Part shown: piece after piece, positions 1,529 through 50,622 of the stretch
Position numbering within the stretch: position 1 is the stretch's first letter
Layout: the number at the start of each line of letters is the position of its first letter
Origin: Candidatus Magasanikbacteria bacterium RIFOXYC2_FULL_40_16
GTDB lineage: Bacteria > Patescibacteriota > Patescibacteriia > Magasanikbacterales > UBA922
Reading direction: 5' to 3'
Length of the DNA stretch: 52,961 nt
Assembly (NCBI GenBank): GCA_001783185.1
Contig: MFQY01000047.1
Coordinates: 1-52,961 of the forward strand
Program-made: the position numbers and the translations under genes
Notes under the pieces: model-generated
What the model saw: only the letters and a program-made list of their open reading frames with translations
Told to the model about the DNA's origin: nothing
Databases searched by the model: none

Positions 1529-1849
1529 CTAGGCGGCTTCTTCTTCCGCTTTTTTACGTAATTCTTCTATTTTTGCGTCTTCTCTTTGAGCCTCGTCTGC
1601 TTGGCGATCAAATTCCAATGATGATACGCCGGATTCAATGTCTTCATCAGTGAGGTCTTTTAATGTCTCTCCTGATATCATTTCATTATCACCCTTGTCT
1701 GCGCCGTGTGATTCCCCAGCTATTCCTGCGTCTTCTCGTTCAGCGTCTGCTTTTTGGCGATCAAATTCCAATGATGATACGCCGGATTCAATATCCTCAT
1801 TAGTGAGGTCTTTTAATGTCTCTCCTGACATCATTTCTCTTTCTCCCAT
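1529..1849 (-). CDS. Acidic protein made of two near-identical halves, hypothetical
   Basis: 106-aa ORF in which SGETLKDLT[N/D]EDIESGVSSLEFDRQ occurs twice. The underlying about 82-nt DNA segments (1603-1684 and 1756-1837) are nearly identical and offset by 153 nt. Confidence 0.6.
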   Translation of the reverse strand: MGEREMMSGETLKDLTNEDIESGVSSLEFDRQKADAEREDAGIAGESHGADKGDNEMISGETLKDLTDEDIESGVSSLEFDRQADEAQREDAKIEELRKKAEEEAA

Positions 1850-37074: not shown

Positions 37075-37665
37075 ATGGCAAAATATGATGGCTGGACATA
37101 TGGTGAGACCGAGGCGCTTCTCAACATCATCGGAGGCGCGGATGTCGCGCGCAAGGTGCTCCGAGGCGAGAGCAAACTGACTGTTGTGGAGATCGTTCCA
37201 CAACCCCTCCTGACTTTGGCTGGAACCGTCAAGGTTCAACCGGTGAATAAGCTCGGGGTGAACGAGTTTTTCAACGAGAATAACTCGTCGGTGAGAATCT
37301 CCTATGTCGGAGACAACTTCAAGGAGTGGTTCTACGGAAAGGAAGAGGAACAACCGAACGCGAACGAAACCGTCTTGCGTTATCACACGCTCAATCGGCG
37401 TTCGGTGGACGGTCCCATCATCAAGGAACTGGGTGGCGAGGACAAGGTCAAGGTTACTCTCTCCCATGTTGCTGCCCTTATGTTGGAACAGTCCAATGGC
37501 GAGCGGGGTGCGCTCCTGACCAATAGCTACGCGGACATCTTCTATGTTCACGACGTCGCGGTGAACGTGTACTGGCTCGGCTTCGGCTGGTACGTGGTCG
37601 CCTACTCGGTCGGGGATCCGGGTGGGTGGAACGCTGGCGGCCGGGTGTTCTCCTGCGATTCATAA
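37075..37665 (+). CDS. DGR variable (target) protein, C-terminal C-type-lectin-like variable region
   Basis: 196 aa with no signal peptide. The last about 36 codons (..AVNVYWLGFGWYVVAYSVGDPGGWNAGGRVFSCDS) contain the VR. The gene is G+C-rich relative to its flanks. Confidence 0.85.
   Translation: MAKYDGWTYGETEALLNIIGGADVARKVLRGESKLTVVEIVPQPLLTLAGTVKVQPVNKLGVNEFFNENNSSVRISYVGDNFKEWFYGKEEEQPNANETVLRYHTLNRRSVDGPIIKELGGEDKVKVTLSHVAALMLEQSNGERGALLTNSYADIFYVHDVAVNVYWLGFGWYVVAYSVGDPGGWNAGGRVFSCDS
37557..37656 (+). repeat. DGR variable repeat (VR)
   Basis: Gap-free 100-nt match to 38024-38123 with 17 mismatches, all at TR adenines. Coordinates anchored on ORF-track codon arithmetic. Confidence 0.88.
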
Positions 37666-37715: not shown

Positions 37716-37761
37716 GGCCCCCAGAATTTTTTTTCGGAAAAATCTGGGGGCCTGTTTTTTT
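37716..37761 (+). terminator. Intrinsic terminator after the target gene
   Basis: GGCCCCCAGAATTTTTT..AAAAATCTGGGGGCC followed by TGTTTTTTT. Confidence 0.6.
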
Positions 37762-38023
37762 GTGAAAAAATTTATGTTATACTGTTTCGGTAGCCACACA
37801 TTGCTCGGCGGCCACGGCTTCCGTGAGATGGCTTCAGAAAATTTTTTTCGAGAGTCGCGTTGGGTATGCCTCGCGCGAGTGTGTAAAATTTTTTTTTTCA
37901 AAAACAAGAATCGGCGCGAAAAATTAGGGGACTTTTTATGTCCCGAATGATATTCAATCCGAGGAGAATTCCAAGGATAGTGTTTAAAGATGATTTTTCG
38001 CGCGAGAACATTCTCGTGTTGCG

Positions 38024-38123
38024 CGCGGTGAACGTGAACTGGAACGGCAACGGCTGGAACGTGAACGCCAACTCGGTCGAGAATCCGAATGAGTGGAACG
38101 CTGACAACCGGGTGTTCTCCTGC
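38024..38123 (+). repeat. DGR template repeat (TR), non-coding
   Basis: In the VR frame it reads AVNVNWNGNGWNVNANSVENPNEWNADNRVFSC (AAC/AAT-rich) and has 25 adenines. A possible extended -10 promoter (TGTTATACT, about 37775-37783) lies upstream. Confidence 0.88.
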
Positions 38124-38141
38124 CACTGTTGTTTTCTCCCG

Positions 38142-38517
38142 TTATTTAGCGGGAGTTTTGCTCAAAAGGCCTTTCCTCCACCCGCCCAACATGCGGCCGA
38201 TTTCATCCAGCTTTTGCGATAGAGTTATATATTTATCTTTGGGTATAAGTTTGTTTTCCCATGCTAGTTGAAAAAAGAATTTTAAGATATCCATTCGTGA
38301 GATGGTTTTTCCAAGCAGAATTATTTTTTGTTCAGGAGGCAAATAAGCGGCCGTGAAAGTTAATTCCAGTATATCCAAGAAGGTTTGTTCTATTTTTTGG
38401 CCTAAGCCAAAGCGCTCTGTCTTTGGCAAGTTTTTATGAAGCGCGAGCCAGAATTGGTATACTTCTTTTTCCTTTGTAATTACCGTTGGTAGCTGGGGGG
38501 GGGGTTAATTGATTCAT
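38142..38517 (-). CDS. avd: Avd-like accessory protein (four-helix bundle / 23S rRNA IVS protein family), reading frame broken at a C10 tract
   Basis: Track ORF 38142..38429 (..LPKTERFGLGQKIEQTFLDILEL...KYITLSQKLDEIGRMLGGWRKGLLSKTPAK) matches the family. Conserved N-terminal residues (EKEVYQFWLALHKN) continue upstream in the same frame to a TAA at the C10 run (38495-38504). The only ATG (38515-38517) is in another frame. Confidence 0.7.
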
Positions 38518-38524
38518 AATATAT

Positions 38525-39646
38525 ATGAAGGTTAAATTGTTTGATACTTTTAATGATATTGTTAGTATAAAAAATTTGATGGGCGCTTGGAGGGATCTCT
38601 TGAAAGGGAAACAAAATAAAAAGGACATCCAATTTTTCTCCCTCCATTTAATGGATAATATCTTAGCTCTTCATTATGATTTAGTAAACAGAACTTATCA
38701 ACATGGTGGTTATGCCAGTTTTTATATAAATGACCCAAAACGGAGGCACATCCATAAAGCGGATGTCAGGGATAGATTACTGCATCACGCCGTTTACAGA
38801 ATTTTATATCCGTTTTTTGACAAAACATTTATATCGGATTCGTTTTCGTGTCGAAACGGCAAGGGTACGCATAGGGCGGTTAATCAGTTTAGAAAAATGA
38901 CCTGCCGGGCAAGCAAAAATAACACAGCCACTGGTTGGGTTTTGAAATGCGATATTAAAAAGTTTTTCGCGAGTATTGACCATAAGGTTTTAATAAACAT
39001 ACTTAATGAATATATACAGGATAAAGATATTATGTTGTTGCTTGAGAATATTGTTGAAAGTTATATGACTGTTTGTCATTCTCGCCCTGTATCACCATTC
39101 TGTCATTCCCGCGAAGGCAGGAATCCAGTTCACGGGATAAACTCCGGCGGGAATCCAGATGATTGGCGGCTGGATCCCCGTTTTCACGGGGATGACAGCA
39201 TTGATGTTGGCTTGCCGCTTGGCAATTTAACTTCCCAGCTTTTTGCCAATGTTTATATGAATGTTTTTGACCAATGGGTTAAACACTTCTTAAAAGCAAG
39301 ATATTATATCAGATATGCCGACGATTTTGTTTTTCTTTCGCCCGACAGGCAATGGCTGGAAGATATTATCCCCAAGATACAAAAATTTTTATCGGAAAGA
39401 TTAAAATTGACTTTGCATCCAAATAAATTATTTTTGAAAACAATTTATTCAGGCATGGATTTCCTTGGTTGGATAAATTTTCCCGGCCATAGGATACTGC
39501 GCCGTACAACCAAGCGCCGGATGTTGGCCAAAATCAAAAATAATCCAACGCCCGAGGCATTGCAGTCATATCTTGGTTTATTAAAACATGGCAACACACA
39601 CAAAATAAAACAGGAGCTTTTGGGGCAGTATTGGTTGTGGCAGTGA
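38525..39646 (+). CDS. DGR-type reverse transcriptase
   Basis: 373 aa with RT motifs (LLHHAVYRILYP, KCDIKKFFASIDH, YIRYADDFVFLS) and the DGR-diagnostic GLPLGNLTSQLFANVYMN. Confidence 0.9.
   Translation: MKVKLFDTFNDIVSIKNLMGAWRDLLKGKQNKKDIQFFSLHLMDNILALHYDLVNRTYQHGGYASFYINDPKRRHIHKADVRDRLLHHAVYRILYPFFDKTFISDSFSCRNGKGTHRAVNQFRKMTCRASKNNTATGWVLKCDIKKFFASIDHKVLINILNEYIQDKDIMLLLENIVESYMTVCHSRPVSPFCHSREGRNPVHGINSGGNPDDWRLDPRFHGDDSIDVGLPLGNLTSQLFANVYMNVFDQWVKHFLKARYYIRYADDFVFLSPDRQWLEDIIPKIQKFLSERLKLTLHPNKLFLKTIYSGMDFLGWINFPGHRILRRTTKRRMLAKIKNNPTPEALQSYLGLLKHGNTHKIKQELLGQYWLWQ
39068..39202 (+). repeat. Family-C hairpin repeats inserted in frame in the RT gene (about 45 codons)
   Basis: TGTCATTCCCGCGAAGGCAGGAATCCAG and GGATCCCCGTTTTCACGGGGATGACA match intergenic copies at 50540, 51518 and 22181. 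They encode TVCHSRPVSPFCHSREGRNPVHGINSGGNPDDWRLDPRFHGDDSI between RT motif 2 and the LGNLTSQ motif. Confidence 0.65.
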
Positions 39647-39805: not shown

Positions 39806-40537
39806 ATGTCCGGTCATTCAAAATGGGCTAATATACAGCAAAAAAAGGGGAAAATGGACAGCGCGCGCAGCGGTTTGTTCACTAAATTAAGCAAAGGAAT
39901 AACCATTGCCGCCCGAGGCGGAGGCGATCCGGAAATGAATTTTTCTTTGCGTTTAGCGATAGAAAAAGCCAAAGGCGCCAATATGCCTAAAGATAATATT
40001 GAACGCGCCGTTAAGCGCGGAACCGGCGAGTCGGGCGAAGGCGCGGTTTTGGAAGAAATATTGTATGAGGGTTTCGGGCCGGGCGGAACGGCTTTTTTAA
40101 TTGAAACGGTTACAGATAATAAGAACAGAACAGCGTCTGAAATCAAACATGCTTTTCTTCAGTTTGGCGGTTCCATGGGCGGGCCGGGAAGCGTGAAGTG
40201 GCAATTTAAACGGATGGGTGTTATCCGTTTAAATAAAGAACAATTAGCAATTAACAATGAACAATCGGCTAATTTTGAATTGGAATTGATTGAGGCCGGA
40301 GCGGATGATATTGTTGATAATGAGTACGGTATGGAAATTCATTGTCCGATTGAAAAATTGCAAGCGGTTTTGGGAGCGGTGAATAAGCGCGAATTGACGC
40401 CGGAGAGTTCGGGATTGGAATGGGTGGCGAAAGAAAATATTTCTTTGAAAGAAGGCGAATCAGCTACTGTGAATAAATTATACGAAATACTGGATGAGTT
40501 GGATGATGTGGAAGCGGTCTACACTAATGAGGCGTAA
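39806..40537 (+). CDS. YebC/PmpR-family transcriptional regulator
   Basis: MSGHSKWANIQQKKGK..., conserved throughout. Track ORF 39785 trimmed to this ATG. Confidence 0.9.
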   Translation: MSGHSKWANIQQKKGKMDSARSGLFTKLSKGITIAARGGGDPEMNFSLRLAIEKAKGANMPKDNIERAVKRGTGESGEGAVLEEILYEGFGPGGTAFLIETVTDNKNRTASEIKHAFLQFGGSMGGPGSVKWQFKRMGVIRLNKEQLAINNEQSANFELELIEAGADDIVDNEYGMEIHCPIEKLQAVLGAVNKRELTPESSGLEWVAKENISLKEGESATVNKLYEILDELDDVEAVYTNEA

Positions 40538-40701: not shown

Positions 40702-41220
40702 ATGTTTGATAAGTCGGATAAGACAAGAATACTCGGCATTGACCCCGGTTTCGGCCGGGTCGGTTGGGGAGTGGTAGAAAAAATCAAAGGCGATTGGAAG
40801 CATGTCGCGCATGGCTGTATTGAGACCGACAAAAAACTGATTTTTATTGACCGGCTTGTTCAGATACAGTTGGAATTGAATAAAATAATAAGAAAATATA
40901 ATCCTAACCGGTCCGCGGTTGAGGATTTGTTTTTTTATAAGAATGTTAAAACCGCGATTCAGGTCGGGCAGGCGAGAGGCGTGATTTTGCTGACTTTAAA
41001 ACAGGCTGGCTTGCCGGTGGACGAGTACACCCCGTTGCAGGTAAAACAGTCCATTACCGGTTATGGCCGGGCGGAAAAAGGCCAGATTCAGAAATTAATT
41101 CAAATGCATTTACAAATGAAAGATAAAATAAAGCAGGATGACGCGGCCGACGCATTAGCTGTGGCTCTGACCGGCGGATACTCGCTGGCGTTTAAAACTA
41201 AAACCAAATTGGCAGAGTGA
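40702..41220 (+). CDS. ruvC: Crossover junction endodeoxyribonuclease RuvC
   Basis: ILGIDPGFGRVGWGVV and DAADALAVAL motifs, 172 aa. Confidence 0.92.
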   Translation: MFDKSDKTRILGIDPGFGRVGWGVVEKIKGDWKHVAHGCIETDKKLIFIDRLVQIQLELNKIIRKYNPNRSAVEDLFFYKNVKTAIQVGQARGVILLTLKQAGLPVDEYTPLQVKQSITGYGRAEKGQIQKLIQMHLQMKDKIKQDDAADALAVALTGGYSLAFKTKTKLAE

Positions 41221-50497: not shown

Positions 50498-50622
50498 TGT
50501 CATTGCGAGGAGTCCCAAGACGACGTCGCAATCCCGTCTTGTCATTCCCGTGAAAGCGGGAATCCAGTAATTTAAAATCTAATGCCTAAAACCTAATCCC
50601 TAAATAATCTAAATAAGTCATT
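50498..50622. repeat. Family-B unit followed by the left copy of an about 84-bp direct repeat (family-C hairpin plus CCTAA word tail)
   Basis: TGTCATTGCGAGGAGTCCCAAGACGACGTCGCAATCCC is followed by TTGTCATTCCCGTGAAAGCGGGAATCCAGTAATTTAAAATCTAATGCCTAAAACCTAATCCCTAAATAATCTAAATAAGTCATT (50539-50622). Confidence 0.65.

Follow-up and report, generated by a model that had tools for sequence, protein, structure and literature searches.

Simple-sequence repeat (SSR) contingency loci, such as the poly-G/C tracts of Campylobacter jejuni, Neisseria and Haemophilus, are well-described cases in which a short repeat decides whether a gene is read in frame. Here we describe a C tract at the 5' end of avd, the gene of the accessory variability determinant, in a diversity-generating retroelement (DGR) of the Patescibacteria, which resembles these loci in several respects: it is a G/C run of 8–13 nt near the 5' end of an open reading frame (ORF), changes by one base shift the frame, its length differs between near-identical strains, alternative repeat types occupy homologous sites, and repeat-free 'locked' alleles exist. 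By contrast, the known contingency loci belong to host-adapted pathogens and concern surface antigens or methyltransferases, whereas the present one is found in free-living or episymbiotic groundwater Patescibacteria and concerns a component of targeted mutagenesis. Moreover, unlike SSR contingency loci, the putative avd switch keeps a single position in many candidate phyla.

Other described systems share individual aspects of this arrangement. Phasevarions, which are based on phase-variable mod methyltransferases, and reversible mutator switches, which are based on tandem repeats in mutL, likewise place many phenotypes or the supply of mutations under the control of a stochastic repeat. However, they act on genome-wide methylation or on the genome-wide mutation rate, whereas avd would act on the site-specific adenine mutagenesis of a single target by reverse transcription. 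Furthermore, in cases of programmed +1 ribosomal frameshifting or transcriptional slippage (prfB, dnaX, IS elements and Shigella mxiE), a slippery homopolymer likewise separates the start codon from a functional domain in another frame. These sites conserve phase and direction, whereas the avd tract is found in all three phases and varies in length at the DNA level.

The genetic architecture in which the tract is found is a common one. Type B3, TR-(avd)-RT, makes up 90% of the CPR DGR set (Wu et al. 2018, PMC5758913), and the locus described here has the same order and orientation: target gene with variable repeat (VR), template repeat (TR), reverse-strand avd and reverse transcriptase (RT) gene. 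A repeat tract in avd, out-of-frame avd genes and overlapping 'mirror' starts are not mentioned in that survey (Wu et al. 2018, PMC5758913), and in a literature search, which is incomplete for CPR DGRs, we found no earlier account in which homopolymers, slippage or phase variation are connected with DGRs or Avd. The B3 architecture and SSR phase variation are known, and what would be new is a contingency switch on a hypermutation machine, conserved across Patescibacteria. To our knowledge, the regulation of DGR hypermutation is largely unknown, and a machine that keeps rewriting a ligand-binding protein must be able to halt when it has arrived at a useful variant. If our reading is true, a heritable and reversible repeat switch on Avd would provide this stop without a transcription factor, a solution that suits very small genomes, and phase variation and retroelement mutagenesis would be coupled in a hierarchy.

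The stretch of DNA that we analysed (52,961 nt; the window) comes from a Candidatus Magasanikbacteria MAG of a groundwater series and contains a complete DGR with target gene and VR, TR, minus-strand avd and RT gene. The target gene (37075–37665, plus strand) encodes a protein of 196 aa with no Pfam match and carries the VR (37557–37656, plus strand) at its 3' end, where it ends 9 nt before the stop codon. The TR (38024–38123, plus strand) is 83% identical to the VR, and 17 of the 17 mismatches in this 100-nt pair fall on TR adenines. The RT gene (38525–39646, plus strand) matches PF00078 (E = 3.7e-21), and the motif GLPLGNLTSQ in its product aligns with homologues, of which 7,967 were found at E <= 1e-60, many of them from CPR MAGs; the protein is identical to OGH83182.1, OGH86655.1 and OGH89438.1. 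The avd and RT genes are arranged head-to-head, with their start codons 7 bp apart. Directly after the TR, an 8-bp hairpin (38136–38155) overlaps the avd stop codon and may act as a terminator. Another hairpin, GC-rich, with a stem of 15 bp and a T-rich stretch behind it, is located at 37716–37752, about 50 nt past the VR and the stop codon of the target gene; it is either terminator-like or an element of the cruciform type that has been reported downstream of some VRs.

This DGR has been active recently in the population to which the window belongs. At least six VR alleles are found among near-identical contigs, in those with a G10 tract and those with a G11 tract alike: one allele is common to the window, L052 and L053, and L054, L055, L061, L062 and L063 each have an allele of their own. 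These alleles differ from the TR only at TR adenines, except for one T position that is common to all full-length VRs. In the Bordetella phage system, Avd is described as essential, and its binding to RT as required for retrohoming (PMC5758913); by analogy, we assume that Avd binds RT and serves cDNA synthesis here as well. Given this role of Avd and the diversified VR, Avd function must have been available recently in these lineages.

The avd gene of the window is nevertheless interrupted at its 5' end. A run of ten cytosines on the minus strand (38504–38495; G10 on the plus strand) lies between an ATG at 38517 and the Avd frame, at avd codons 5–8; this poly-C tract, which we regard as a hypermutable repeat, is C10 here and C11 in sister assemblies. 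On the plus strand, the RT ATG follows 20 nt downstream of the end of the G10. The tract is the longest G/C homopolymer of the window, which has a GC content of 40%; a G10 is expected 0.04 times per dinucleotide-preserving shuffle and was present in 3 of 100 shuffles.

The minus strand is laid out as ATG (38517–38515) AAT CAA TTA A-C10-AGC TAC CAA CGG... and can be read in two ways. From the ATG, it reads ATG AAT CAA TTA ACC CCC CCC CCA GCT... (MNQLTPPPATNG...), and this frame ends at a stop codon at 38436–38434. The Avd frame starts behind a TAA directly 5' of the tract (38507–38505), continues with CCC CCC CCC and CAG CTA CCA ACG GTA ATT ACA... (PPPQLPTVITKEKEVYQFW...) and ends with the stop codon at 38144–38142; the Avd domain within it (38142–38495, minus strand; QLPTVITKEKEVYQFW...TPAK plus stop) is intact and bAvd-like. 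Because the TAA closes the Avd frame at C10, this tract length leaves it without a canonical start at the tract, and because ATG, GTG and TTG are absent from the frame between the TAA and a TTG at 38429, its first canonical start, gene callers report only a 95-aa fragment. A preliminary description of this stretch had noted that the Avd frame lacks an ATG, that it meets a TAA directly 5' of the C10 run (minus strand, 38495–38504) and that the ATG at 38515–38517 enters the run in another frame, and all of this we could confirm. It was mistaken in taking this ATG as the only one that reads into the run; two further ATGs, at 38626–38628 and 38645–38647 on the minus strand, also open into the tract.

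The avd ORF thus contains a simple-sequence repeat whose length sets the reading frame. The likely avd start codon at 38515–38517 (MNQLTPP...) joins the frame of the Avd domain only at C9 or C12: removal of one C (C9) would give an Avd of 124 aa, and addition of two (C12) one of 125 aa. The upstream ATG at 38626–38628 shares its frame, and an ORF of 161 or 162 aa would be expected from it at C9 or C12, respectively. The far-upstream ATG at 38645–38647 (MEGEKLDV...) joins the Avd frame at C11 (or C8/C14), where it yields a 168-aa ORF; this ORF and a 163-aa version from a TTG are both called as bAvd in G11 assemblies. As judged from these frames, the window allele, C10 without a canonical start, is nominally OFF, C9 and C12 are the predicted ON lengths via ATG 38517, and the C11 of the sister assemblies may be a long ON form that uses the far-upstream ATG. 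A non-slippery version of the avd C tract would read CCACCGCCT.

The protein that results from the repair of the frame has the properties of an Avd. It matches Pfam PF22296 (bAvd) with 53.4 bits (cutoff 40) over residues 15–116 and profile positions 6–106 of 107, in agreement with the earlier suggestion that C9 would fuse the two frames into an Avd of normal size, and the Avd domain matches the family HMM with E = 1e-51. With 124 aa and a pI of 9.70, the C9 product fits the small basic Avd proteins (about 120–130 aa), for which a mean pI of 9.5 +/- 0.7 has been reported (Wu et al., PMC5758913). A single-sequence AlphaFold model features four main helices, at a low pLDDT of 55. A PDB search with the single Avd sequence gave no match. 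With the family profile, an alignment over the full length of 4dwl_A, the solved four-helix bundle of Bordetella phage Avd (4DWL), was obtained at a weak E = 0.89.

Close relatives of the window are informative with regard to the start codon. The Avd of L069 (protein P0129), which falls into one cluster of at least 90% identity with that of the window, is an intact 124-aa protein that reads MNQLTPPPQPAVITKEKE... in frame. Its tract is also C10, and there is one base fewer after the tract. As L069 uses the same MNQLTPPP start in frame, it supports ATG 38517 as a real start. In another relative, L070, the tract is C10 and out of frame, like that of the window.

We consider it likely that the C10 run is a selected hypermutable SSR, which gates Avd and thereby mutagenic retrohoming. 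Slipped-strand mispairing during replication would alter the tract by one base, and a change by one base would bring the putative four-helix domain of Avd into or out of frame with a start codon. With Avd out of frame, TR-to-VR mutagenesis would stop and the current variant of the target protein would be fixed; with Avd in frame, diversification would resume. In this manner, a population could hedge its bets, some cells diversifying while others keep a fixed variant. We infer that the frame state controls the level of Avd protein and, through it, retrohoming. Switching of the tract is presumably reversible and frequent, as is indirectly supported by the recurrence of tract lengths on several haplotypes (see below), and the repeat at the junction is probably adaptive.

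Evidence that the tract varies in length comes from near-identical genomes. An exact look-up of the RT protein retrieved 17 contigs (L052–L068) from NCBI, JGI, ENA and Logan assemblies, some of which are possibly re-assemblies of the same reads, so that the number of independent samples would be lower than 17. The tract is G10 with both flanks intact in the window and in six other contigs (L052–L056 and L058), and G11 with identical flanks in eight (L061–L068); L059 has a G10 beside a scaffold N gap, and L057 and L060 begin at the tract. The extra G is the sole difference between L066 (G11) and the window over 2,853 bp, and L063 (G11) has two further differences, both of them in the VR. The SNP haplotypes at 39811, at 40324/40327/40358 and at 40892 are each seen with G10 and with G11; therefore, the tract has either changed repeatedly or recombined. 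As a control, a T10 run at 37889–37898, 600 bp away, is T10 in 11 of 11 contigs, and nearby runs of T8, T7, T7 and A7 are invariant as well: the G tract alone varies.

These contigs also bear on the trivial explanation, namely that the true gene is intact and only seems to be broken because the homopolymer was misread in sequencing or misassembled. G/C homopolymers of at least 10 nt are indeed error-prone, and the tract marks the beginning of two of the contigs and adjoins an N gap in one scaffold. However, the same G10 is found in six other contigs with both flanks and G11 in eight, identical pipelines yield G10 from some samples and G11 from others, and five A/T runs of 7–10 nt nearby, including the T10, do not vary. 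In addition, the C9 or C12 product is absent from a collection of 15 billion proteins, and in the family survey described below, all 19 repeat-free loci are in frame. We hence reject the consensus error that the preliminary description had named as an alternative, and consider it very improbable.

Exact look-up in the same collection of 15 billion proteins likewise returned none of the C8 and C14 products of this strain. Two scans of a metagenome contig collection that does not include these samples, one with a variable tract and one with a fixed 35-mer flank, gave no match to the locus. It counts against a switch that the majority alleles in the strain are C10 and C11 only, yet the VR is diversified. 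RNA slippage or a +1 shift on CCC-C may render some OFF states leaky, which would help to explain VR diversification in lineages that are now at C10. We also observed that the near-identical contigs often end in the VR or TR (L054, L055, L063–L065 and L068) or break at the G tract, as would be expected if assembly was disrupted by heterogeneity of the population at the two sites.

Variation of this kind is not restricted to one species. In a second one, whose RT is 57% identical to that of the window, the tract is G10 in L170 and L171 and G11 in L172, while the alignment shows 0 mismatches over 2,176 bp. A third species has G10 in L174 and GGAGGGGGG in L173, two contigs that are 99.9% identical. 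In a fourth, the tract is G9 in all six contigs shown, without variation. The repeat length thus varies between near-identical genomes in three species, in that of the window beyond the control sites, and does not in one. For P0004 and P0060, the RT ORFs run through the tract, and an exact-protein look-up accordingly returns one tract length only. The length polymorphism between near-clonal genomes in three species supports the phase-variable switch that the preliminary description had put forward; what it had not foreseen are the occurrence of the repeat throughout the family, the third frame at C11 and the absence of its predicted ON length for the strain, C9, from public data.

The repeat is also found in most related loci. 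GTDB species representatives were searched with Avd and, in a less biased manner, with RT, which gave 131 loci; a family Avd HMM located a divergent avd in 99 head-to-head loci, of which 75 form the RT-anchored set. A tract of C6–C13 is found directly 5' of the Avd domain in 65 of these 75 CPR loci, with C10 as the mode (C6, C7, C12 and C13 in one locus each, C8 in 8, C9 in 17, C10 in 27 and C11 in 9); a few of the family loci come from low-coverage or nanopore MAGs, in which homopolymer lengths are unreliable. When three loci with (CA)n (L101, L110 and L147) are included, 68 of the 75 loci have a repeat at the same site, and two loci of the Avd-anchored set (L015 and L016) have (CT)n. Some of the loci with dinucleotide repeats at the poly-C site are in frame and some are out of frame.

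Long G/C runs are otherwise rare in these regions. In 425,684 bp from 80 loci, 66 G/C runs of at least 8 nt occur, in 64 loci, and 63 junction tracts are that long; therefore, long G/C runs are essentially confined to the avd/RT junction. An in-frame ATG is present in 25 of 80 repeat-bearing loci, compared with 19 of 19 repeat-free ones (Fisher p = 1.3e-8).

Two other accounts of the tract were considered and rejected. One is that a PPP peptide motif is conserved: AT-rich genomes employ pure CCC codons here, and where (CT)n or (CA)n takes the place of the tract, a different peptide is encoded, which rules against such a motif. The other is a start downstream of the tract as a general rule: 27 of the 65 tract-bearing loci of the RT set, as well as the window, have no ATG, GTG or TTG before the conserved helix 1. 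In 13 loci with only a downstream TTG, GTG or ATG, such a start could be used.

The phase of the tract was determined relative to the upstream ATG that is open into it, in 71 loci with C8 or longer. The Avd domain is in frame in 20 loci, one base would have to be deleted in 31 and one inserted in 17; two loci have no ATG open into the tract, and one has ATGs in both out-of-frame phases. An ATG open into the tract is thus retained in 69 of 71 loci. The phases (20/31/17) are compatible with a uniform distribution (chi-square p = 0.09), with no conserved phase or direction of shift, and such near-uniformity would also be expected of an unconstrained tract.

These phases are relevant to another possible explanation, recoding at the level of RNA or the ribosome, in which slippage of the polymerase or a +1 shift of tRNA-Pro on CCC-C would provide a low, constitutive supply of Avd and changes in DNA length would be incidental. 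CCC-C is a textbook sequence for +1 slippage of tRNA-Pro, and transcription tends to slip on long homopolymers. Purifying selection is seen although about 70% of the loci are out of frame, the largest class (31 of 68), which includes the window, needs exactly a +1 shift, and VRs are diversified in lineages that are now at C10. Programmed frameshift sites normally conserve their direction, however, whereas here the phase is not fixed: no shift is needed in 20 loci, and 17 would require one in the opposite direction. Furthermore, the (CT)n and (CA)n repeats that replace the tract in some loci are not known as ribosomal slip sites, and the change of length in the DNA is directly observed. While recoding is compatible with a switch, the phases and the occurrence of dinucleotide repeats speak against recoding alone, and we regard it as an unlikely explanation of the tract.

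Whatever the phase of the tract, Avd is under purifying selection. The median HMM score is 140.7 bits in OFF loci and 129.1 bits in ON loci (p = 0.30), the Avd domain is covered in full in 50 of 51 OFF loci, and the median dN/dS of Avd is 0.144 for 100 OFF-OFF pairs compared with 0.137 for ON-ON pairs. This makes it extremely unlikely that the DGR is dead and avd a pseudogene in decay, a reading for which the lack of a canonical start at C10 and a 42-aa insertion from a palindromic repeat in the RT could be cited. Against it, the VR is diversified at TR-adenine positions only, the Avd frame is intact, with a family dN/dS of about 0.14 in out-of-frame loci, and avd has no further disabling mutations. 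The simple pseudogene, which had also been raised at the outset, is rejected on these grounds.

The RT insertion itself deserves a brief description. It is an in-frame insertion of about 42 aa (..VCHSRPVSPFCHSREGRNPVHGINSGGNPDDWRLDPRFHGDDSIDV..; 39097–39201 in the window) just before GLPLGNLTSQ, built of a palindromic repeat element with 32-nt arms that are 78% complementary. It is missing, wholly or mostly, from seven close homologues, and a second, diverged copy of the element is found 11 kb off, at 50541–50565. Since the VR still diversifies, the insertion is tolerated.

The start codons on the two strands are closely interlocked. In most cases, the ATG that opens into the tract is of a 'mirror' type and corresponds to the reverse complement of RT codon 7 (CAT). 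The mirror starts are also seen from the other side, the RT ATG being the reverse complement of avd codon 7, with an antisense overlap of 21 nt (L001, L009, L013, L072–L150). In the window, the 'mirror' codon is ATC (38543–38545, minus strand), opposite Asp7 of the RT, and lies in the C11 frame.

The same region contains a candidate promoter for avd. TTGATA and CATAAT, with a spacing of 17 nt, form a consensus match on the minus strand (38673–38701) inside the 5' coding region of RT, and this site would place all three ATGs on the avd transcript. Across the 99 loci, promoter-like hexamers on the avd strand cluster 166–210 nt upstream of the Avd domain, at RT codons ~45–60; 63 of 100 matches fall in this cluster, and 76 of the 99 loci have at least one. 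The clustered hexamers could represent an embedded avd promoter or simply result from the conservation of RT codons (HYDLVNRTYQ).

Lastly, the tract might have been selected for a role on the RT-sense strand, as a G run in the RT 5' UTR, as a spacer in the DGR RNA or in promoter spacing, with its effect on avd being secondary. It lies between divergent starts and is followed in most loci, after a few tens of nt, by the RT start, and a transcript from TR to RT must cross it. But in other loci the site holds (CT)n, (CA)n or, in 19 loci with intact DGRs, no repeat at all, so that no common RNA motif is conserved; no plus-strand promoter-like site was found across the tract; and Avd production in the loci without an in-frame start would be left unexplained. 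We deem such a role on the RT side quite improbable.

Returning to a switch on Avd, its extension from this locus to the whole group is a broader claim, towards which we lean only slightly: most Patescibacteria/CPR DGRs would carry an ancient, selected C(n)/(CT)n/(CA)n switch at the head-to-head avd/RT junction that randomly toggles hypermutation between exploring and freezing target variants. With its position 20 nt upstream of the RT start, the tract may also tune avd and RT simultaneously. If so, many 'inactive' or 'avd-less' DGRs and many truncated avd annotations would be phase-OFF states.

The tract also distorts public annotations of avd and RT (38142–38429 and 38525–39646 in the window; proteins P0121, P0125–P0127 and P0003). 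Avd is called as a protein of 95 aa at C10 or of 163/168 aa at C11, and RT is called from Met43 where it overlaps with the long Avd ORF, or gains an upstream extension across the poly-G, which results in GGG... N-termini. CPR avd genes are thus systematically mis-called, and surveys of avd presence or of DGR 'activity' should weigh the phase of the tract. Conversely, tract length in metagenomic reads could report the ON/OFF state in situ, and tract design could be used to gate engineered DGR-based systems for continuous evolution.

Apart from the DGR, the window contains a cluster of shorter G/C runs (G7, C9 and G8) at 1464–1510, in which a strong hairpin is formed by C9-GCTGTACAGC-G8. This hairpin is followed by TTTGTATTTTT on the minus strand and is located downstream of an ORF at 1529–1849 (minus strand), and it looks like an intrinsic terminator with homopolymer arms. 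Tandem repeats of 'GCTTGAAAA' are found just upstream of the cluster, at about 1398–1421.
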